The position numbers and the translations under genes are program-made. A stretch of 64,000 nt of DNA. Origin: Minisyncoccota bacterium. GTDB lineage: Bacteria; Patescibacteriota; Minisyncoccia; Phycocordibacterales; XYD1-FULL-46-19. The notes beneath the pieces were generated by a model. The model was not told the origin of the DNA. It was given only the letters and a program-made list of their open reading frames with translations, and did no database searches. Below, piece by piece: positions 3,181 through 57,251 of this stretch; position 1 is the first letter of the stretch; each line of letters begins with the position of its first letter. The stretch is from contig JBAZMZ010000002.1 in NCBI GenBank assembly GCA_041649495.1, positions 18,793-82,792 on the forward strand, given 5' to 3'.

Positions 3181-3305
3181 ATTTTCTATTTCACGTTTCT
3201 CTTGGTTCATTGTCAGATGAGCCATTTTTTGATATTCTAAAAGAACAATTGAATATGGTGGCCTAAACCTACGCTTTTTAACTAAGGCTGGGCATGGCTC
3301 AAAGT

Positions 3306-3450
3306 CCCATCCCTGACACTGAACCCCGCGTTCAGCAACTCAGGGATGGGCCGTGCACCGAAAGGTGTATGGGGTCGTAAGACCTAGCTAGCGCGGGGCT
3401 TAGTGTTTCTCGCAAACCCTAACACTGCCCCAGTCAGTGTTTTTATTTTC
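3306..3450 (+). promoter_or_regulatory. structured 5' leader: pseudoknotted hairpin, GAAA-tetraloop hairpin and intrinsic terminator just before the start codon
   Basis: 11-bp stem cccatccctga (3306-3316) / tcagggatggg (3340-3350) with 23-nt loop. Loop segment ccccgcg (3324-3330) is complementary to cgcgggg (3392-3398). gcacc-GAAA-ggtgt hairpin at 3355-3368. Terminator aacactg-ccccagt-cagtgtt plus T-run at 3421-3450. An alternative pairing agtgtt (3402-3407) / aacact (3421-3426) could act as antiterminator. Confidence 0.45.
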
Positions 3451-3458
3451 TAAAAAAT

Positions 3459-4061
3459 ATGAATGAAATAATTTACATATTAACCAATGAAGCCATGCCA
3501 GGATATATCAAAATCGGTATGACAAATAATTCTCTGGAAGAAAGAATTCGTCAACTAGACCGAACAAATATTCCACTACCTTTTGAGTGCTATTACGCTT
3601 GCGAAGTAGAAAATGCTCACGAGGAAGAGAAGTGGCTTCATTCAGTTTTTTCAGATAGGAGAGTTCGAGATGGTCGCGAGTTTTTTCAGATTGATCCAGA
3701 AAGAGTTGTTACCGCCATTCGAAAAGTTCAGAAGAGGGATATAACACCGAAGAATTTTATTAACACCACCAAAGAAGAAGAAAAAGAACTGGAAGAAGTG
3801 AAAAGCGTTAGAGCTAAATTTGATTTTACTCATTACGGGATACCCATAAATTCCACCCTAACTTTTTCTCGAGATCAGTCGACAAAAGCGGTGGTATTAG
3901 AAAATAACAAGATAGAAGTTGGCGGAAAAGTCACCAGTCTGTCGGCTTCTGCTCAAGAACTTTTAGGCTATAAGAGAGGCGTGGCGGGGACGCTTTATTG
4001 GCTCTATGAAGATGAGACTCTCGATGAGCGCCGGAGAAGGCTTGAAGGCAATGGTCTCTAA
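3459..4061 (+). CDS. GIY-YIG / T5orf172-domain protein
   Basis: N-terminal IYILTNEAMPGYIKIGMT and ..REFF.. pattern typical of the T5orf172 (GIY-YIG-like) domain. Confidence 0.55.
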   Translation: MNEIIYILTNEAMPGYIKIGMTNNSLEERIRQLDRTNIPLPFECYYACEVENAHEEEKWLHSVFSDRRVRDGREFFQIDPERVVTAIRKVQKRDITPKNFINTTKEEEKELEEVKSVRAKFDFTHYGIPINSTLTFSRDQSTKAVVLENNKIEVGGKVTSLSASAQELLGYKRGVAGTLYWLYEDETLDERRRRLEGNGL

Positions 4062-11590: not shown

Positions 11591-11797
11591 ATGGAAAAGA
11601 CTAAAAAACAGTTGTCTAACACCCAACACCAGAAAAGAAGAAAGCTTAAAAAAATCAGAAGAAGGAATAAGGGTAAAACAAACTATTTTGAGAGAACACT
11701 TAAAATAATAAATAATCTCGGGATAAAGAAACAAATATTAAAAGTTACAAAGAAGAGGAATAGTATTAAAAGAGGGATTTTACCACCTCATCCTTAA
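11591..11797 (+). other. basic 68-aa ORF in the same frame as the RT, one codon past its TGA stop; possible displaced thumb/C-terminal tail
   Basis: Frame identity (10499 and 11591 are congruent mod 3). Very basic sequence (KRRKLKKIRRRNKGK..). The RT lacks a thumb-like segment. Confidence 0.35.
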
Positions 11798-13113
11798 ATG
11801 GCAGTTATAATTTTTTGTTTCAAGATAATTTTACTCTTTAGGCATGTCAGCAATTCTCTCTTTTCAATATTTGTCCCATCTCTCAAAATAAACTTGGCAT
11901 AATTTTTGATATCAATTTCGCCGACTTCAATTTTGTCTTTTAATCCAAGGATGACTCTTTGGAATTTCTTGAAACGCTCAACTTCGGTTTTGATTTTTTC
12001 CTTGATACTGATTTCGTTTAGATCTATTTTGTCGAGGAGCAGTTCGAATTGTTTAATCAAATCTTTTTCTTCAATATATCCGCATTTACAGTGGGCATCT
12101 TTGGCCTTAGTACAGCCATAATATACGTAACGATGAACATTGCCATTTTGCTGTTTCTTGAATTTCTCGTCAGCACAAATACCTGATCCGCATAAACCGC
12201 AAGTCATTAATTTGGTAAAAGCGAATTCCTGATTTTCGACTCTTAAAACATTGCTCTTAAGTTGAGCATGGGTTTGATCGAATAATTCTCGAGTGATAAT
12301 TGGCTCGTGTTTGCCTTGATACCAATTTCCACTATTTTTCGGATATTCAAAGGCCCCGTAATAAAAGGGGTTATAGAGAATACGAAAGATATTGCCTAGA
12401 CTTAAATGCTTTTTGCCTGCCGACGTTCTGAAATTTAATTCAAACCGTAACCACATATAAAGTTTCTTTCCACTCCATTTATCATAAGCCACTTTCTCAA
12501 ACACTTGTTTAATAACTGGTGCCCGTTCTGGATCAATAATTGCTTGGCACTTTCGATCCGATCTTTTTTCATTGAGATAGCCCGTCGGTGGAACTCCCGG
12601 TCTTAAACCCATTTCGCACCTAGTCCTTAGGCCACGTTTTACATTAACGCTCTTGTTGTCATTTTCGAGTTTGGCTTGAGAACATAAGATCATTAACAGG
12701 AATTTTTCATTTGGTGAATTTATAAATGTCTGGCCATAAGTTCTGATTTGCAGAAGCAATTTTTGATCCATTAAATCAACAACTGAACCAAGATCGCCAG
12801 CGTTTCTTGAAAGTCTGTCAGGTGCCCAAGTCAAAATTCCATTGAACCGACCCTGCCTAATATCCTCGAGTAATTCCTTAAAAATTGGCCGTTGTCCCGA
12901 GTCCTTAGCTGAATGAGCCTCACGTCTAATATCGACAATTTCTAAATTATCCCTTTCGGCCAATTGGAGCATCTCTTTGACTTGCGAATCGATCGACAAG
13001 ATTTGGCGCTCTTCTGATTCGGTCGACTTGCGTGCATATAGGACATACTTAATCGGCGTTGGTGGGGCAACGATTGATCTATCCATTATTTGACTATCCA
13101 GCTCTATTTTCAT
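11794..13113 (-). CDS. large serine recombinase
   Basis: N-terminal resolvase catalytic domain (YARKSTESEERQ..SIDSQ), recombinase domain, and Cys-rich zinc-ribbon region (CGLCGS..YYGC..CKC). Confidence 0.9.
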   Translation of the reverse strand: MKIELDSQIMDRSIVAPPTPIKYVLYARKSTESEERQILSIDSQVKEMLQLAERDNLEIVDIRREAHSAKDSGQRPIFKELLEDIRQGRFNGILTWAPDRLSRNAGDLGSVVDLMDQKLLLQIRTYGQTFINSPNEKFLLMILCSQAKLENDNKSVNVKRGLRTRCEMGLRPGVPPTGYLNEKRSDRKCQAIIDPERAPVIKQVFEKVAYDKWSGKKLYMWLRFELNFRTSAGKKHLSLGNIFRILYNPFYYGAFEYPKNSGNWYQGKHEPIITRELFDQTHAQLKSNVLRVENQEFAFTKLMTCGLCGSGICADEKFKKQQNGNVHRYVYYGCTKAKDAHCKCGYIEEKDLIKQFELLLDKIDLNEISIKEKIKTEVERFKKFQRVILGLKDKIEVGEIDIKNYAKFILRDGTNIEKRELLTCLKSKIILKQKIITAI

Positions 13114-13302
13114 CGTCGTCCATTAATGACAGACCAGAAAACCTTGTAAAGTCTATGCAGAATTGCCCGTTTATTACATAATCGTGGGCTAGCTTTACAA
13201 AAAATACTGTCTGCGATAGGGTTGGACGGATACAATTTTTGTTGTATTATTATCTTTGACAATACCTAAACCAAACTTTGCGTTTGGCATGGTAAATATA
13301 GG

Positions 13303-13468
13303 AAATCCCACGCGAGTAGAAACGGCCACATAAGCCGGCACTTACTCGCGTGGGTCCTCACCCGAAAGGGAGAGGGATAGTTCCGAAAGGAGCTATCGTC
13401 GGTCTTGTGTGGCCATTTGTGTCCCACAAAAATTATTAGCAATTATTATTAAATCCCACGCGAGGTAT
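13303..13468 (+). promoter_or_regulatory. structured 5' leader: pseudoknotted hairpin, two GAAA-tetraloop hairpins, and a triplicated segment allowing alternative pairing over the start region
   Basis: 12-bp stem cccacgcgagta (13307-13318) / tactcgcgtggg (13343-13354) with 24-nt loop. Loop segment ggccaca (13324-13330) is complementary to tgtggcc (13408-13414). GAAA hairpins at 13356-13375 and 13375-13396. aaatcccacgcgag occurs at 13303-13316 and again at 13451-13464, 4 nt before the ATG at 13469. Confidence 0.45.
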
Positions 13469-14119
13469 ATGGATAATAAAAACGAGTCTCCCGAGGTTGA
13501 GACTAAAAAGAAAAACCGAGTTCAAATAATTAGTTGGATTATTGGTGTACTAATTGGATTCACTGGAATCGTGCAGATTTTTTCAGAGCCAGCTTTGGGA
13601 ATTTTGTTCATTCTTCTTGCGGTCATCATTATCCCCGTCACTAGAGAAAAAATTACTCAAAAACTAAATAACCGCTTGTCGAAGAATATAATCATCGGCA
13701 TTGCAATTATTACCCTTGTTATCGTTGGGGTTGTCGTGAGTGATGACCTAGAAACAAACAAGCAAGTGGCAAAGATTAATAAGCCAAAACCCGTAGAAAC
13801 TGAAACGGTCCATGATTTTGTCAAAATTGGAGATATTGGATATTTGAGATTGCCAGGAACCAGGGATCCAGAGCAAATGATCTGTTTGGGCCCGACCAAA
13901 GAAGCTTATGATCAAGTAATGAGCTCCATAAGTGCTAAAGATCTTTTGGGCATTGTCGAAGCTGGTGGATTTTGCGTTGGTAATGGTACAAAAGTAAAAG
14001 TCATTGGTGGTAGTTTTTCTCTCAAACAAGTTAGAATTATAGAAGGAGTGAGAGAGATAGATAAAAATGTTGTCTTACGATCTGGCTGGGTGGCAACAGA
14101 ATGGGTGGTTAAAAATTAA
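13469..14119 (+). CDS. membrane protein, N-terminal paralog of the 4196 gene
   Basis: ATG at 13469 gives MDNKNESPEVETKKK plus TM helices, matching the N-terminus of the 4196 gene. The C-terminal domain is different and unrecognised. Confidence 0.6.
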   Translation: MDNKNESPEVETKKKNRVQIISWIIGVLIGFTGIVQIFSEPALGILFILLAVIIIPVTREKITQKLNNRLSKNIIIGIAIITLVIVGVVVSDDLETNKQVAKINKPKPVETETVHDFVKIGDIGYLRLPGTRDPEQMICLGPTKEAYDQVMSSISAKDLLGIVEAGGFCVGNGTKVKVIGGSFSLKQVRIIEGVREIDKNVVLRSGWVATEWVVKN

Positions 14120-15034
14120 TTGTTTATTATGAAAACTTTTCTTTTTAAAAAAATCCTGTTCGGCATAGGTGTGGTTTTTGTCCTCTTAATATTAATCGGT
14201 ATCATTTTCCCGACCTCTGATTCCGAAATAAGCAAAAGGGAAATTAAAAATGTTGAAGTTGACACTCGAGTGGCAATTTCAAATCTAAAAGAGCAAGAAG
14301 CCGTTGTCCCTAAAGTTCAGAACCTAAGTCCTAAAGTAGAGGCCACAAAAGAAACGGTTGCTCAAGTTAAGATTCCTCCGGCTGTCCCTACCTATACTTA
14401 TTACTCCGTAACGAGCGTTGTTGATGGTGATACTTTGAAAGTAAATATCAATGGAAATACCGAGACACTACGTCTAATTGGTATGGACACCCCAGAAACG
14501 GTTGATCCCCGAAAACCTGTTCAATGTTTTGGGAAAGAAGCTTCAAATAAAGCCAAAGAATTATTAACTGGCAAAAAAGTTCGAATTGAAAAAGATCCAA
14601 CTCAAGGCGAACGAGATAAATATAATCGCTTGCTTGCCTATATCTACCGTGAAGATGGATTATTCTATAACAAATATATGATTGAAATTGGTTATGCCCA
14701 TGAGTACACCTATGGCACTCCCTACAAGTATCAAGCAGAATTTAAAGTGGCTCAGAGGTCTGCTCAGGCTTCATTTGCTGGGTTATGGTCTCCGAATACC
14801 TGCAATGGGGATACAACTTCATCCGCGGGCACAACGACTGTCGCTCCCGTCACTCAGACAACGCAAACGGTGGGCAAGTTTTACACTTCTTCTTATTCAA
14901 CTTCAAAATACTATTACCCAGCAGAATGTGACGATTGGAAAAGTTTAAGTGTAACATACCTTAAATCTTTTGATTCACTCGACGCTCTTCTTTTAGCCTA
15001 TCCTTCAAAAGCTAAAAGTCCTCAGTGTGATTAG
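14120..15034 (+). CDS. membrane-anchored thermonuclease (staphylococcal nuclease-like)
   Basis: N-terminal TM helix then SNase-fold motifs VVDGDTLKV...RLIGMDTPE...YNRLLAYIY and a Thr/Ser-rich C-terminus. Confidence 0.85.
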   Translation: MFIMKTFLFKKILFGIGVVFVLLILIGIIFPTSDSEISKREIKNVEVDTRVAISNLKEQEAVVPKVQNLSPKVEATKETVAQVKIPPAVPTYTYYSVTSVVDGDTLKVNINGNTETLRLIGMDTPETVDPRKPVQCFGKEASNKAKELLTGKKVRIEKDPTQGERDKYNRLLAYIYREDGLFYNKYMIEIGYAHEYTYGTPYKYQAEFKVAQRSAQASFAGLWSPNTCNGDTTSSAGTTTVAPVTQTTQTVGKFYTSSYSTSKYYYPAECDDWKSLSVTYLKSFDSLDALLLAYPSKAKSPQCD

Positions 15035-49064: not shown

Positions 49065-50655
49065 GGTAATAGTATAATAAGAGCGCGGGGTAGAGTAACG
49101 GTAATTCGCAAGGCTCATAACCTTGAGACGCCGGTTCGAATCCGGCCTCCGCAACATGTCCAGACGGCATCGTCTGAAAATCCTCATTTAGCTTGAAGAT
49201 ACAAGACAAAATCGCGGTTCCAAATGTCCCAGTGGTTTTTTGATAGGTGATGCCTTGACTTAGAACCATTTTTTGGAACCTCACCTTTTGCGCGGATTCC
49301 ATTAACCACCACTGATTAGCAGTGTCAGCAATTAGCTGGTTCGTTCCAGTGATGGCCTCCTCGAGATCAAGTTCTTCAATTTCGGCCTCGTTTCTTGAGA
49401 CCCGAAGACTAGCCATTTGATTATCAAGTGAGTCTTTTAACTCTCGATATTCATCTTTGGAGATTTCTTGTTCAACTCTCATCCCCAGTAGCTCCCGCTT
49501 CTTTTTTTCAAGTTTTGAGATCTCCTGTTGATAAAAATCTTTCTCTTGTTGAGCTGTCGAATGTCTTGTTTGATAGACCTCAATAACCGTTTGTTTAAAT
49601 AGGGCCAAGAATTCCTCGGACGGGGTGACTTTTTGGAGAAAATTATAGAATTCACCCTCCAGAACATCTCTAGCGATACCCCGATTACAATGAACGCAGG
49701 CTGGATTGTAGCAATTATAGTAGGCGTATTTTTTACCCCGGCCCGTGTTCCAAGAGCCCGTTAGCCCACGATGGCATTCGCAAGAGACAAAACGTCGGAG
49801 AGGGAAGTCGGGGTTATCAGAGGCTCTTGGCCGGGTGGCCCCACTTGATTTTTGGGTTTTGACCATTTGAATTTTTTGGTATTCATCAATCGTGATCATC
49901 GGTTGGTGTTGCCCTCGGTGTTCTTCTTTTGTCCAAGGATTGACTAAAATTCCGGCGTAGAATTTATTGACCAAAATAATCTCCCAAAGTTGCTTTCGCA
50001 TCAGTTTCCCCGTTCTTGTTCTTAATCCCCAGCTATTACTTTCTTCAGCCAATCGAGTGATTGTGTGGTTTCCCTTGAGATAAAGTCTTAAGCCTTTCTG
50101 GATTAGATAAAAACGCTTGTCGTCGGGAATGTCTGGTAGATTTTTCCGACGATCGGTTCGCAACTTTGAATTTGTGTAGCCAATCGGAGGCGACCAACAC
50201 CAGATACCCTCTCTCAATTTCGCTTTCATTCCGCCGGTGCAACGTTGTTTTCTGACTTCATTCTCGAACTCGGCATAGCCCGCCAAAAAGGTTTCCATTA
50301 ATTTGCCGATATGATCTTGCGTAATTGGCTCAGTTACCGATTGGAGTGTGATGCCGTATTGGGTTAATTTAGCACGCACCGCAAAGTGGTCGGTAGTGTT
50401 GCGGGCGAAGCGGTCAATTTTCCAAACAATAAAATAATCAAGATCTTCTTTGTTTAAGCGGCAGAATTCAAGCGCTTTTAAAAATTCAGTCCGATTGGTG
50501 GCGGTGGCCGACTCTCCTCGTTCTACAAAAACCTTAACCACTTCAATATTATTTTTGGTGGCATAATCAAGACAGGCCCGTTCTTGAGAATCAAGGCTAG
50601 TCCCTTGAACCTGCTCGTTTGATGATACTCGACAATAGATGATTCCTTTTTTCAT
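49057..50655 (-). CDS. large serine recombinase (second copy), tRNA-adjacent
   Basis: N-terminal IYCRVSSNEQ...SLDSQ resolvase domain, recombinase domain, Cys-rich zinc ribbon. The 3' end of the ORF runs antisense across the tRNA-Met gene (tail ..AGFEPAS..). Confidence 0.85.
   Translation of the reverse strand: MKKGIIYCRVSSNEQVQGTSLDSQERACLDYATKNNIEVVKVFVERGESATATNRTEFLKALEFCRLNKEDLDYFIVWKIDRFARNTTDHFAVRAKLTQYGITLQSVTEPITQDHIGKLMETFLAGYAEFENEVRKQRCTGGMKAKLREGIWCWSPPIGYTNSKLRTDRRKNLPDIPDDKRFYLIQKGLRLYLKGNHTITRLAEESNSWGLRTRTGKLMRKQLWEIILVNKFYAGILVNPWTKEEHRGQHQPMITIDEYQKIQMVKTQKSSGATRPRASDNPDFPLRRFVSCECHRGLTGSWNTGRGKKYAYYNCYNPACVHCNRGIARDVLEGEFYNFLQKVTPSEEFLALFKQTVIEVYQTRHSTAQQEKDFYQQEISKLEKKKRELLGMRVEQEISKDEYRELKDSLDNQMASLRVSRNEAEIEELDLEEAITGTNQLIADTANQWWLMESAQKVRFQKMVLSQGITYQKTTGTFGTAILSCIFKLNEDFQTMPSGHVAEAGFEPASQGYEPCELPLLYPALLLYYYLK
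49084..49154 (+). tRNA. tRNA-Met (CAT anticodon), initiator-like
   Basis: Hand-folded cloverleaf: acceptor cgcgggg/ctccgca with C1:A72 mismatch, D-stem gagt/attc with A11:U24, anticodon arm caagg-ctCATaa-ccttg, T-arm gccgg-ttcgaat-ccggc, discriminator A. CCA not encoded. Confidence 0.85.
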
Positions 50656-55188: not shown

Positions 55189-55333
55189 ATTTATAAGATA
55201 ATAATATAACTTTTAGGACCAAGATTAAAGGGTTAGACAGCTTTATTTTTAATTGGTTTGGTGCTACTCTATACTTAACAACTAAATAAGGAGACCTAAC
55301 CCAATAATCTCGATTGTTGGCATGGTCAAAAAG

Positions 55334-55433
55334 CCACTGCTGGCTACTAAACCCGTCGTTTAGGAGCGCCAGCAGTGGTTACCACCCGAAAGGATGGTAG
55401 GTGGCCTCGGCCATCGCCTAGCGACGGGTTTAG
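55334..55433 (+). promoter_or_regulatory. structured 5' leader: pseudoknotted hairpin plus GAAA-tetraloop hairpin (third copy of the architecture)
   Basis: 11-bp stem ccactgctggc (55334-55344) / gccagcagtgg (55368-55378) with 23-nt loop. Loop segment ctaaacccgtcg (55347-55358) is complementary to cgacgggtttag (55422-55433). ttaccaccc-GAAA-ggatggtag hairpin at 55380-55403. Confidence 0.45.
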
Positions 55434-55469
55434 TGGTTGACAAATAAATTATCAATTAAAAATAAAATC

Positions 55470-57251
55470 ATGAAAAAATATCTATTTATCGCTCTGGTTC
55501 TCTCTCTGATCATCTTGCCTAAAATCAGTTCGGCTGATTCTTTGGGCGTTACCAGTATTACGGCGGTTAAAACCTCGGCTCTTGCTAACAATTCTTTTAC
55601 TGATGGTTGGCAATGGCTATTTAATATCACGGTGCCCTCTGGTGAAGATAATCTGCAAATGAAATTCCTTGATTGGACTAATGGCGCCTTAACGATTCCC
55701 ACTGGTGGCAATATGCGTTTCTACTCGGCTCAATCATTAAACGCGACTGATGCTAATAGCGCCATTGCCGTTAACTCGGCCAATACTTATGGCGATAATT
55801 TAATTCTTGATCCAACAAAGGGCCAGCAAGTTCAAGTGATGGTAGAGGTTAAAATTCCTACGGGAACCACTGGTGGATCATATTCAACGAGTTATGGGAT
55901 TCAGACGACTGGGACTACTACACCCAGTGCTCCGATTCTTAGCCTCAAATTAAGTGATGATTCTCCGGCAACTGGGACTTCCTCTGCGGTAAGCAATCTC
56001 GGTGTCTTTGGAATCAAAACTAAAGATAATACTGTTAGTTGGATTACCGATTTGAGTTTCAATCTCAATATTAAGGAGGGTTATAGTCCCGAATCCCTCT
56101 TATCCCAAAATGGTGGCGAGTGGACGAGCAATGACACTCTAACCTTTCACAATCTCAATACTCGATTAAGCCAGGATTGGCATTATTTTACTTTGAATAA
56201 CCTCAGCGTCCTCCACCCCAAAACAGCCCCCACCTTTACAATTTCGGCAACTTTAGATGCCAGCGAAATCAAGGCCGAGGATAATTCTGGCAATAGTCTT
56301 GATGTTTCTAGTCTGGATGATATTACGAGTAATGAGATGACTTTTATTCCACCTCCACCAGAAGAAATAGGAACTCTTAGGGTCTCACTAAATTCTAGTA
56401 ACCCGATGGCTTCAACGGTTTTTGCTTCTAATAATGGTAAAGTGGAGAATGTTTCGTTGCTTGCCTTCGATGTTAAGGCTGAGAATTTGGACATTTCTGT
56501 CACTGATCTAGATGTTTTGATTCAAAAGACGGACGAAGGTACGGCGATAGCGACAACCGCGTTTTTGTGTGAAGGCCAAACGGTCTTGGGTTCGGCTACT
56601 GTCAATCCCACTAATGGCACTGCGACTTTTTCAAATCTAAATTTTTCTATTCCTCAAGACACAACCAAAACCTTAACTTTGTTGGTTGATATTACAAGTG
56701 CTAATAGCGCCCCCTCTGTTTTTACAGCCTCCCTTGATGGCGCCGAGATGACGGCGATAGATTCAAATTATAATACTGTTGTGCCAACTGGTTCTGCGAC
56801 GGGGAACGATATAGCTATCCAAAGTGCTGGGGCCGTGATCAATTTAGTTAGTTCGAGTATTGGTATCCCCGTGGTTAATCCTGGAACTGGTTCGACAACG
56901 GCCTTGTCAGGGACATTTAATTTAAATTTTACGGCTGTCGGCGGTGACTTGGAAGAACCCGTCGCTAGCGACTTCGTTGTTAAAGCGACAAATAATCCCG
57001 CTCACACTGAGGCAATCACAATAACTAACCTTGGCATTAGTGTATCTTCACCAACTCCTTCGTTAATTGCCGATGGCTCTTCTGCCTCAATCACTTTGAC
57101 TCCAATATTAGAAAATTCTCAAGTTACTGAAAGTGGCGACTATTTCTTTTATGTCGAATCAATAAAATCTACCATTTCTGGTCAGTCTTCAATTACTAAG
57201 ACGACAGGTTTAGAAAGTTATATAACGGCTCCTGCCCCTTTTACCAAATAA
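55470..57251 (+). CDS. large secreted Ser/Thr-rich surface protein
   Basis: Start MKKYLFIALVLSLIILPKISSA (signal peptide). Long low-complexity T/S/N-rich body. Confidence 0.6.
   Translation: MKKYLFIALVLSLIILPKISSADSLGVTSITAVKTSALANNSFTDGWQWLFNITVPSGEDNLQMKFLDWTNGALTIPTGGNMRFYSAQSLNATDANSAIAVNSANTYGDNLILDPTKGQQVQVMVEVKIPTGTTGGSYSTSYGIQTTGTTTPSAPILSLKLSDDSPATGTSSAVSNLGVFGIKTKDNTVSWITDLSFNLNIKEGYSPESLLSQNGGEWTSNDTLTFHNLNTRLSQDWHYFTLNNLSVLHPKTAPTFTISATLDASEIKAEDNSGNSLDVSSLDDITSNEMTFIPPPPEEIGTLRVSLNSSNPMASTVFASNNGKVENVSLLAFDVKAENLDISVTDLDVLIQKTDEGTAIATTAFLCEGQTVLGSATVNPTNGTATFSNLNFSIPQDTTKTLTLLVDITSANSAPSVFTASLDGAEMTAIDSNYNTVVPTGSATGNDIAIQSAGAVINLVSSSIGIPVVNPGTGSTTALSGTFNLNFTAVGGDLEEPVASDFVVKATNNPAHTEAITITNLGISVSSPTPSLIADGSSASITLTPILENSQVTESGDYFFYVESIKSTISGQSSITKTTGLESYITAPAPFTK

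Follow-up and report, generated by a model that had tools for sequence, protein, structure and literature searches.

The thiamine pyrophosphate (TPP) riboswitch of Escherichia coli thiM has a translational expression platform with anti-Shine-Dalgarno (anti-SD) and anti-anti-SD strands. Leader refolding that depends on processing or kinetics is seen with the fold-back and activator elements of the hok mRNA and at the start of the maturation gene of phage MS2. The 11-nt GAAA tetraloop receptor, CCUAAG/UAUGG, is found in group I and group II introns, RNase P and cyclic di-GMP-I (c-di-GMP-I) riboswitches. The locus described here was compared with these systems. It lies in a 64,000-nucleotide stretch of DNA, referred to as the window, from a Minisyncoccota bacterium (GenBank assembly GCA_041649495.1, contig JBAZMZ010000002.1, positions 18,793 to 82,792 of the forward strand). 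An RNA element of the family LOOT (RF03000), here called copy 2, precedes the gene of a 216-aa predicted membrane protein, and the 5' arm of its long hairpin P3 is repeated just before the start codon. LOOT, an RNA of ultra-small bacteria of the "candidate phyla", is a motif from the Weinberg/Breaker collection of metagenome-derived motifs (PMC7779021, PMC11701678).

Copy 2 resembles the thiM-type platforms in that one strand of a helix in the sensor position has its complement in the ribosome-loading region and, in the folded domain, would be masked by the other strand. Unlike these platforms, LOOT has no known ligand or pocket, its masking helix is 12 bp long and very stable, the sequence to be masked repeats the other helix strand literally and stands 0-6 nt from the ATG, and the genes concerned have no common pathway. 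With hok and MS2 it shares long-range alternative pairings that would set access to the start codon, the state being determined by the parts of the RNA that are there or have already folded and not by a metabolite. It differs from both in having no antisense partner, toxin-only gene set or known processing event, and in that an intact 5' domain predicts the ON and not the OFF state. The internal loop of P1 (CCUAAA/CAUGG) is one base pair off the 11-nt receptor (A.C for G.U), and conserved GAAA loops cap P4 and often P5; a contact between the P1 loop and a GAAA tetraloop may be formed, judging from these motifs. Compared with LOOT as catalogued, two differences were found. The Rfam model ends at P5 and has an inner helix drawn in the P3 loop, whereas in the window copy the loop pairs 3' of the model. 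Furthermore, Rfam types LOOT as "Gene; sRNA" (a small RNA gene), whereas here it is a 5' leader, and about one in four copies has a putative start-masking add-on.

A LOOT leader with a copy of its P3 arm before the start codon

Rfam scanning of the window resulted in three plus-strand matches to LOOT (gathering score 46.4). Copy 2 (13263-13397) scored 68.7 bits and covered model positions 1-121 of 121, while copy 1 (3260-3385) and copy 3 (55293-55415) scored 70.9 and 85.5 bits. The pattern CCTAAMCC N6-30 GGCATGG gave three matches in the window, copy 2 at 13265-13292, and none in 100 shuffles. Copy 2 has the features that characterize the family, namely P1 with CCUAAAC...GCAUGG, an A-rich linker, a long P3 and two hairpins with GNRA loops. 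An extended covariance model, R1, holding P1, the pseudoknot, P4 and P5, scored the three copies at 100-110 bits and found nothing beyond them in the window. The folding z-score of the copy 2 leader was -6.7 against shuffles. The element is a new instance of the catalogued family LOOT.

An earlier note on this DNA had described three copies of one architecture with unrelated primary sequence, without recognising LOOT. The copies are true homologues, all three being LOOT matches, but the statement on their sequences did not hold: CCUAAMCC...GGCAUGG and CCGAAAGG are common to all. The segment described in that note corresponds to the 3' two-thirds of copy 2 and the spacer up to the gene. Its start at 13303 left out the conserved 5' domain P1 (13263-13294). 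A 12-bp stem with a 24-nt loop, and two GAAA-tetraloop hairpins between the pseudoknot strands, had also been reported and were found as described (Table 1).

Scanning of a genome collection with a pattern made from three conserved LOOT blocks gave at least 119 loci, almost all in metagenome-assembled genomes of Patescibacteria/candidate phyla radiation. The family counts given below were drawn from the matches listed (109 parsed loci, 107 with an open reading frame (ORF)). Searching with R1 gave 103 copies in 100 sources, from which a 103-sequence alignment was made. All of the eight homologue loci that were re-scanned with Rfam scored above the LOOT threshold. Locus L109, from a Paceibacterota genome, is near-identical to the window around copy 2. 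No other Rfam families were found in the long spacers between LOOT and its gene. A viral collection of 2.9 million contigs held only 6 matches to the LOOT pattern, and a phage or mobile-element origin of LOOT was rejected on these grounds. No literature on the function of LOOT or on structured leaders in Patescibacteria was found in a search outside which the supplementary description of the discovery paper lay. The position of LOOT as a leader, its long pseudoknot and the putative device for start masking, which covaries, have apparently not been described so far.

LOOT is the 5' leader of an mRNA, here that of the membrane protein. A same-strand ORF follows 107 of the 109 copies, its ATG at a median of 82 nt past the P4 (GAAA) hairpin and typically some 15-60 nt 3' of the 3' strand of the pseudoknot, the start codons of the homologues being assigned by a simple first-ATG rule. 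In the window the start codon at 13469 was confirmed by the N-terminus MDNKNES, conserved in orthologues. No Pfam family was found for the protein; its homologues are 78%, 63%, 63% and 58% identical to it, and all carry an upstream LOOT. The promoter-like site upstream of copy 2 predicts a transcription start at about 13258-13259 (gACAAU), a few nucleotides before P1, and the block that holds it is conserved in the orthologous loci L126 and L128. In 73 of the 109 loci the motif ACAAYTNA is found about 12 nt upstream of P1, preceded by an AT-rich -10-like box. The position of box and motif just upstream suggests that the RNA probably starts a few nucleotides before P1. ACAAYTNA is probably the transcription start with the first transcribed bases, and could also be an unrecognised 5' extension of the LOOT RNA; in the window it is located at 13259-13263, 3243-3250 and 55274-55281. 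The many G.U pairs of the structure indicate that it belongs to a strand-specific, plus-strand RNA.

Two other ways of reading the leader were rejected. No plus-strand terminator-like site was found in 13050-13600, hence none between LOOT copy 2 and the ATG, which rejects a terminator platform (transcription attenuator) for this copy. A leader peptide starting at the AUG of GGCAUGG was rejected because the ORF has 2-69 codons in nearly all leaders, with stops scattered across the elements; its median length is like that of the other two frames. Two mechanically called ORFs overlap LOOT, one of 58 aa on the minus strand (13266-13442) and one on the plus strand that extends the membrane-protein gene in frame from a GTG (13409-14119). 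Both are unsupported, since the orthologues keep the protein only from the ATG at 13469.

The sequence AAATCCCACGCGAG occurs exactly twice, at 13303-13316 and at 13451-13464, and the second copy ends 4 nt before the ATG, as the earlier note had stated. Its paired part is the perfect complement of CTCGCGTGGG (13345-13354) in the P3 3' arm, and it overlaps an SD-like GAGGU (13462-13466). The 14-mer is the only exact direct repeat of at least 14 nt within 200 nt in the whole window, and only 9 of 200 composition-matched shuffles held any such repeat. A chance origin is therefore unlikely. The identity of the linker nucleotides does not go beyond what is expected from A-richness (permutation p = 0.30), and the exact match outside the 10 paired nucleotides thus carries no extra meaning. 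Among the homologues, 27 of 109 leaders hold a second, exact copy of 8-16 nt of the P3 5' arm further downstream, the controls reaching at most 8 nt for the reversed arm and 7 nt for the 3' arm. Complementarity of the 3' arm to positions -30 to +6 of the ATG, with G.U allowed, was bimodal. A strong class of 7-13 bp was formed by 25 of 107 leaders, the rest being at background, and this class was never reached in control windows inside ORFs. In each of the 25 leaders of the strong class, which have 20 different arm sequences, 0-6 nt separate the end of the paired segment from the ATG. In L069, L095, L110 and L040 the copy deviates from the 5' arm where the pairing to the 3' arm is kept or bettered (G.U to A-U), which points to RNA pairing rather than to mere sequence identity or a DNA repeat.

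Absence of the repeat from orthologous loci had been named as a result that would speak against its function. It was found to be present and to co-vary with the stem. Across the orthologues of the membrane-protein gene the P3 stem occurs in the variants CCCACGCGAG, CCCGCTAGAG and CCCACCACG, and the pre-ATG copy follows. The window and L109 have the 5' arm CCCACGCGAG and the pre-ATG segment aaauCCCACGCGAGguauAUG. L126 and L130 have the arm CCCGCTAGAG, lost at the contig end in L130, with the segments aaaaCCCCGCTAGAGuuuuAUG and aaaaCCCGCTAGAGuuuuAUG, respectively. The arm CCCACCACGG goes with aaaaCCCACCACGcaaAUG in L128 and L129, being lost at the contig end in L129, and with CCCACCACaaaaaAUG in L127; the stem form matched by the copy in these three loci is CCCACCAC(G). 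The pseudoknot strands of the orthologous loci are likewise different and compensated. The complementarity between the 3' arm and the pre-ATG segment is conserved and covarying.

Pseudoknot and competing pairings

The loop segment ggccaca (13324-13330) is complementary to tgtggcc (13408-13414), which begins 54 nt 3' of the hairpin. The full complementarity is longer, with AAACGGCCACATAAG (13320-13334) and CTTGTGTGGCCATTT (13404-13418) forming 13 of 15 standard pairs (87%), or 14 of 15 with one G.U. Pairing of the P3 loop with a strand 3' of P5 beats shuffles of the loop at p<=0.05 in 95% of the 109 homologues (median z 4.5), which have 101 distinct loop sequences. In the 103-sequence alignment, 14 of the 15 pseudoknot pairs are changed on both sides and 87-97% of cells are paired, counts that lean towards the pseudoknot because the alignment was fitted to a model already holding it. 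Over all 38 structure pairs 92.5% of cells are paired, compared to 40-48% when the partners are slid by 1-3 columns. In alignment A2 the P3 arms were out of register, the model having paired the pseudoknot instead, and P3 was taken from the Rfam consensus. LOOT has a real and conserved pseudoknot, which is missing from the reference model. The pseudoknot had been described as 7 bp long; its existence was borne out, with covariation in about 100 homologues, and its length was corrected to about 15 bp.

The pseudoknot 5' strand overlaps the inner hairpin P3a of the Rfam model. P3a was significant in 68 of 109 loops and uses the same nucleotides as the covarying pseudoknot, which indicates two conserved, mutually exclusive pairings in LOOT. 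In copy 2 only CGGC/GCCG (4 bp; 13323-13326/13334-13337) is possible, and several non-canonical pairs are marked there by cmscan. A further alternative, the "anti-pseudoknot", pairs the pseudoknot 3' strand with a downstream copy of its partner and is enriched among the homologues (p<=0.05 in 39 of 109 and p<=0.01 in 17). It is clear in L126 (GAGTCTT/AAGACTC) and in L128 (CTGGCTAG/CTAGCCAG). In the window it is weak, UUGUGUGG/CCCACAA with a bulge, and alone not significant. The earlier note had spoken of a triplicated segment. Triplication is a wrong description, since the third "copy" consists only of tcccac (13422-13427), is no conserved arm copy, is not significant alone and reads better as a weak anti-pseudoknot (ccacaTaa vs cccacaa). 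In leaders with the arm copy the anti-pseudoknot hairpin stands 2-5 nt before the A-rich tract and the copy, and the helix of 3' arm and pre-ATG copy, enclosing P4, P5 and this hairpin, defines a nested alternative fold. The parts of the copy 2 leader are listed in Table 1.

Table 1. Features of the LOOT copy 2 leader and its gene, and positions of the other two LOOT copies in the window
Feature	Positions	Strand	Sequence	Basis and remarks
Promoter-like site	13223-13250	+	TGGACG, 16-nt spacer, TATTAT	Consensus scan only; -10 box 13245-13250
LOOT P1	13263-13294	+	uaCC/GGua closing helix; internal loop CCUAAA/CAUGG; inner hairpin CCAAAC-uuugc-GUUUGG	Rfam alignment, pattern match, model R1
Single-stranded linker P1-P3	13295-13306	+	aaauauaggaaau	A-rich, also in family consensus; last 4 nt (AAAU) belong to the 14-nt repeat
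P3 5' arm, proposed "anti-anti-start" strand	13307-13318	+	CCCACGCGAGUA	12 bp, 100% complementary; P3 in Rfam consensus
Pseudoknot 5' strand, in P3 loop	13320-13334	+	AAACGGCCACAUAAG	Complementarity and model R1
P3 3' arm	13343-13354	+	UACUCGCGUGGG	13345-13354 is the proposed anti-start strand; can pair with 13307-13316 or with 13455-13464
P4 hairpin, GAAA tetraloop	13356-13375	+	CCUCACCC-GAAA-GGGAGAGG	Loop 13364-13367
P5 hairpin, GAAA tetraloop	13376-13397	+	GAUAGUUCC-GAAA-GGAGCUAUC	Loop 13385-13388; 3' end of Rfam model; loop is GNRA in 83/91 homologues
Pseudoknot 3' strand	13404-13418	+	CUUGUGUGGCCAUUU	Outside Rfam LOOT model
Weak "anti-pseudoknot"	13423-13429	+	CCCACAA	Partial copy of pseudoknot 5' strand; possible partner UUGUGUGG in the 3' strand
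Second copy of linker end and P3 5' arm	13451-13464	+	AAAUCCCACGCGAG	13455-13464 pairs with P3 3' arm
Downstream gene, 216-aa predicted membrane protein	13469-14119	+		Start ATG 13469
LOOT copy 1	3260-3413	+		P3 3306-3316/3340-3350; pseudoknot 3317-3332/3390-3405; gene at 3459 (T5orf172 domain)
LOOT copy 3	55293-55443	+		P3 55332-55344/55368-55380; pseudoknot 55345-55360/55420-55435; gene at 55470 (593-aa secreted protein)

Proposed start masking and its alternatives

The leader is rather probably a three-segment translational platform, in which the P3 3' arm is the anti-start strand, the 5' arm masks it and the pre-ATG copy is its target. With P3 closed the start region would be single-stranded and translation could begin. 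If the 5' arm were removed, sequestered or out-competed, the 3' arm would pair with the pre-ATG copy, and this pairing would bury positions -5 to -14 and block loading of the 30S ribosomal subunit. Processing or decay at the 5' side of the leader, binding of a factor or a ligand, and slow post-transcriptional refolding are candidates for the trigger. In agreement with the proposed masking, the start region in the arm-copy class was predicted to be unpaired with a probability of 0.52 when the 5' part was present and of 0.32 when it was removed; the corresponding values for the other leaders were 0.53 and 0.52. From the complementarity of the 3' arm to the pre-ATG copy and its covariation we infer that the two strands pair in vivo, with repression of translation as the result.

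Several results weigh against such a switch. The calculated duplex energies are -24.8 kcal/mol for P3 and -21.8 kcal/mol for the 3' arm with the pre-ATG copy, and nearest-neighbour folding gave -84.2 kcal/mol for the fold with P3 and -75.3 kcal/mol for the forced alternative, the P3 fold being 8.9 kcal/mol lower. A gap of this size implies that the platform could not be flipped by a simple equilibrium. P3 is favoured and is also transcribed first, so the alternative should not form unless the 5' arm is removed or occupied. The pre-ATG copy is absent from 77% of LOOT leaders, including copies 1 and 3 of the window, which makes the device an add-on and not the core function of LOOT. In the family the pseudoknot of 15-19 bp has linkers of 0 nt and 3-8 nt, and a helix of more than one turn inside a loop of 22-24 nt closed by P3 is sterically tight and topologically awkward. 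The downstream genes are very heterogeneous and give no hint of the signal: 106 proteins fall into 49 unrelated Pfam families, the largest of them, zinc-ribbon, having 7 members, and they include zinc-ribbon proteins, DNA methylases, restriction-enzyme subunits, bacterial PH domains and small membrane or secreted proteins. The leaning of the pseudoknot counts towards the fitted model and the first-ATG rule, given above, belong to the same side. For the translational platform proposed in the earlier note, the complementarity of the 3' arm to the second copy by the ATG and its recurrence in 25 of 107 leaders were upheld, while the folding calculations favour the hairpin.

More tentatively, LOOT as a whole might not be an sRNA but a riboregulator found in 5' leaders across the Patescibacteria, a multi-state switch made of "original and copy" strands that would respond to an unknown global signal through interchangeable platforms and act on accessory genes. 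The competing strands would be P3a and the pseudoknot, the pseudoknot 3' strand and the anti-pseudoknot, and the P3 5' arm and the pre-ATG copy. An intact or damaged 5' end, a ligand or a factor might serve as the signal, start masking and a terminator as the platforms, and surface-protein, restriction-modification and membrane-protein genes as the targets. In such a switch the unusually long pseudoknot, with 15-19 bp in a loop of 22-24 nt, may exclude P3, in which case its formation would drive the 3' arm onto the start region.

Two alternatives are versions of the three-segment platform preferred above, and each of them appears somewhat doubtful. A more specific version is that LOOT is a ligand- or protein-sensing, riboswitch-like regulator with modular platforms, the mutually exclusive pairings being its moving parts. 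The competition of P3a with the covarying pseudoknot and the enrichment of the anti-pseudoknot as a third pairing fit this explanation, as does the difference in platforms between copies (start masking in copy 2, a terminator-like hairpin in copy 1), which is also seen in riboswitch classes. However, the downstream genes form no coherent regulon, apart from the tetraloops and the receptor-like loop there are few conserved unpaired nucleotides that could make up a pocket, the 12-bp P3 is too stable for ligand dependence, and most leaders have no recognisable platform. Of the features expected of a metabolite riboswitch, the pairing that links the sensor domain to the ribosome binding site or terminator is present and a functionally coherent gene set is not. 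The other version, which we rate no higher, is triggered by processing: LOOT would protect or insulate the mRNA as a stable structure at its 5' terminus, and the pre-ATG copy would be a fail-safe that silences decapitated mRNA. LOOT begins at or near the predicted transcription start, its fold is the predicted ground state and the alternative wins only when the 5' part is lacking. The alternative fold is self-contained and fully nested and needs nothing from the 5' 60 nt, and a mixed gene set suits a general-purpose leader. No sign of processing sites or of relevant RNases acting at the locus was seen, though, and there is little obvious gain in silencing an mRNA already in decay; the conservation of both P3a and the pseudoknot is left unexplained as well.

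Two further explanations do without a leader function of the repeat. A free-standing, trans-acting sRNA with the pseudoknot and a U-rich tail as its 3' end, for which gene proximity and the 14-nt repeat would be incidental, is very unlikely. The Rfam family type is sRNA, and in most cases a U-rich tract, such as CUUUGUGU or CCUUUUUU, comes after the G/C-rich 3' strand of the pseudoknot and could be a terminator-like end for some transcripts. Such an RNA does not account for the co-oriented ORF at a short, narrow distance in 107 of 109 copies, nor for the covariation of the arm copy in orthologues and its fixed place at the start codon, and no conventional terminator follows copy 2. Still less probable is that the 14-nt repeat is a DNA-level feature lacking RNA function, that is, a duplication, a target-site duplication or a recombination site of the neighbouring serine recombinase. 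A large gene of this type lies divergently upstream in the window, and likewise in L128, the repeat is exact including the 4 linker nucleotides that are not paired with the 3' arm, and the LOOT core diverges faster than its flanks, which hints at module replacement. Serine recombinases are not known to leave long direct repeats. Since the left copy forms part of a conserved RNA helix and the conserved P1 is not included in the repeat, the arrangement does not agree with any insertion model. The distance from the right copy to an ATG is 0-6 nt in every case, the differences that some copies show to the 5' arm are confined to sites where the pairing to the 3' arm survives, and the linker identity is explained by A-richness. 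On the geometry and the pairing-preserving differences a DNA-level repeat or target duplication was rejected.

Other copies, neighbouring genes and significance

The genes behind the three copies encode a T5orf172-domain protein (copy 1), the membrane protein (copy 2) and a large secreted protein (copy 3). The second genes are a staphylococcal-type nuclease after the membrane protein and a peptidoglycan-binding protein after the secreted protein. Neither copy 1 nor copy 3 has a pre-ATG arm copy. Copy 1 is followed by a terminator-like hairpin (3421-3441) with a T-run to 3449, which may be a transcriptional platform on LOOT. The hairpin, AACACUG-ccccagu-CAGUGUU followed by UUUAUUUU, has a 5' arm whose AACACU can alternatively pair with the pseudoknot tail AGUGUU (3402-3407).

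The divergent serine recombinase gene (11794-13113, minus strand), which codes for Resolvase, Recombinase and zinc-ribbon domains, stands directly upstream of copy 2, and the membrane-protein gene is followed by the staphylococcal-nuclease-domain gene (14120-15034, plus strand). The order of recombinase, LOOT and gene is also found in L128, and the unit may thus sit at the edge of an integrated element. Between the window and L126 the identity is 61% in the LOOT core, 52% in the spacer, 72% in the upstream/promoter region and 83% in the ORF. The stems and pseudoknots of the orthologues resemble those of LOOT elements found at unrelated loci (comparison of L126, L128 and window 13180-13770). 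The divergence of core and spacer beyond that of the flanks, together with this likeness, suggests fast turnover or an exchange of LOOT modules between paralogous copies. In L038 (5005-5295), L048, L078 and L080 a conserved spacer of about 300 nt was observed between LOOT and a portal-like gene. This spacer is hairpin-rich, ends in a terminator-like stem with a T-run, has no Rfam match and may be another structured RNA. The only tRNA gene in the window is a tRNA-Met (CAT) gene at 49084-49155 on the plus strand.

LOOT is a widespread and ornate orphan RNA of a huge, almost uncultured radiation with very few known regulatory mechanisms. The results suggest a revision of the Rfam model and of the family type. 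Three handles, namely the position as a leader at the mRNA 5' end, the long covarying pseudoknot and the co-evolving candidate anti-start device in about a quarter of the copies, make the function of LOOT testable. If the trigger were found, the accessory (surface and defence) genes of these episymbionts would for the first time be linked with a regulatory signal.

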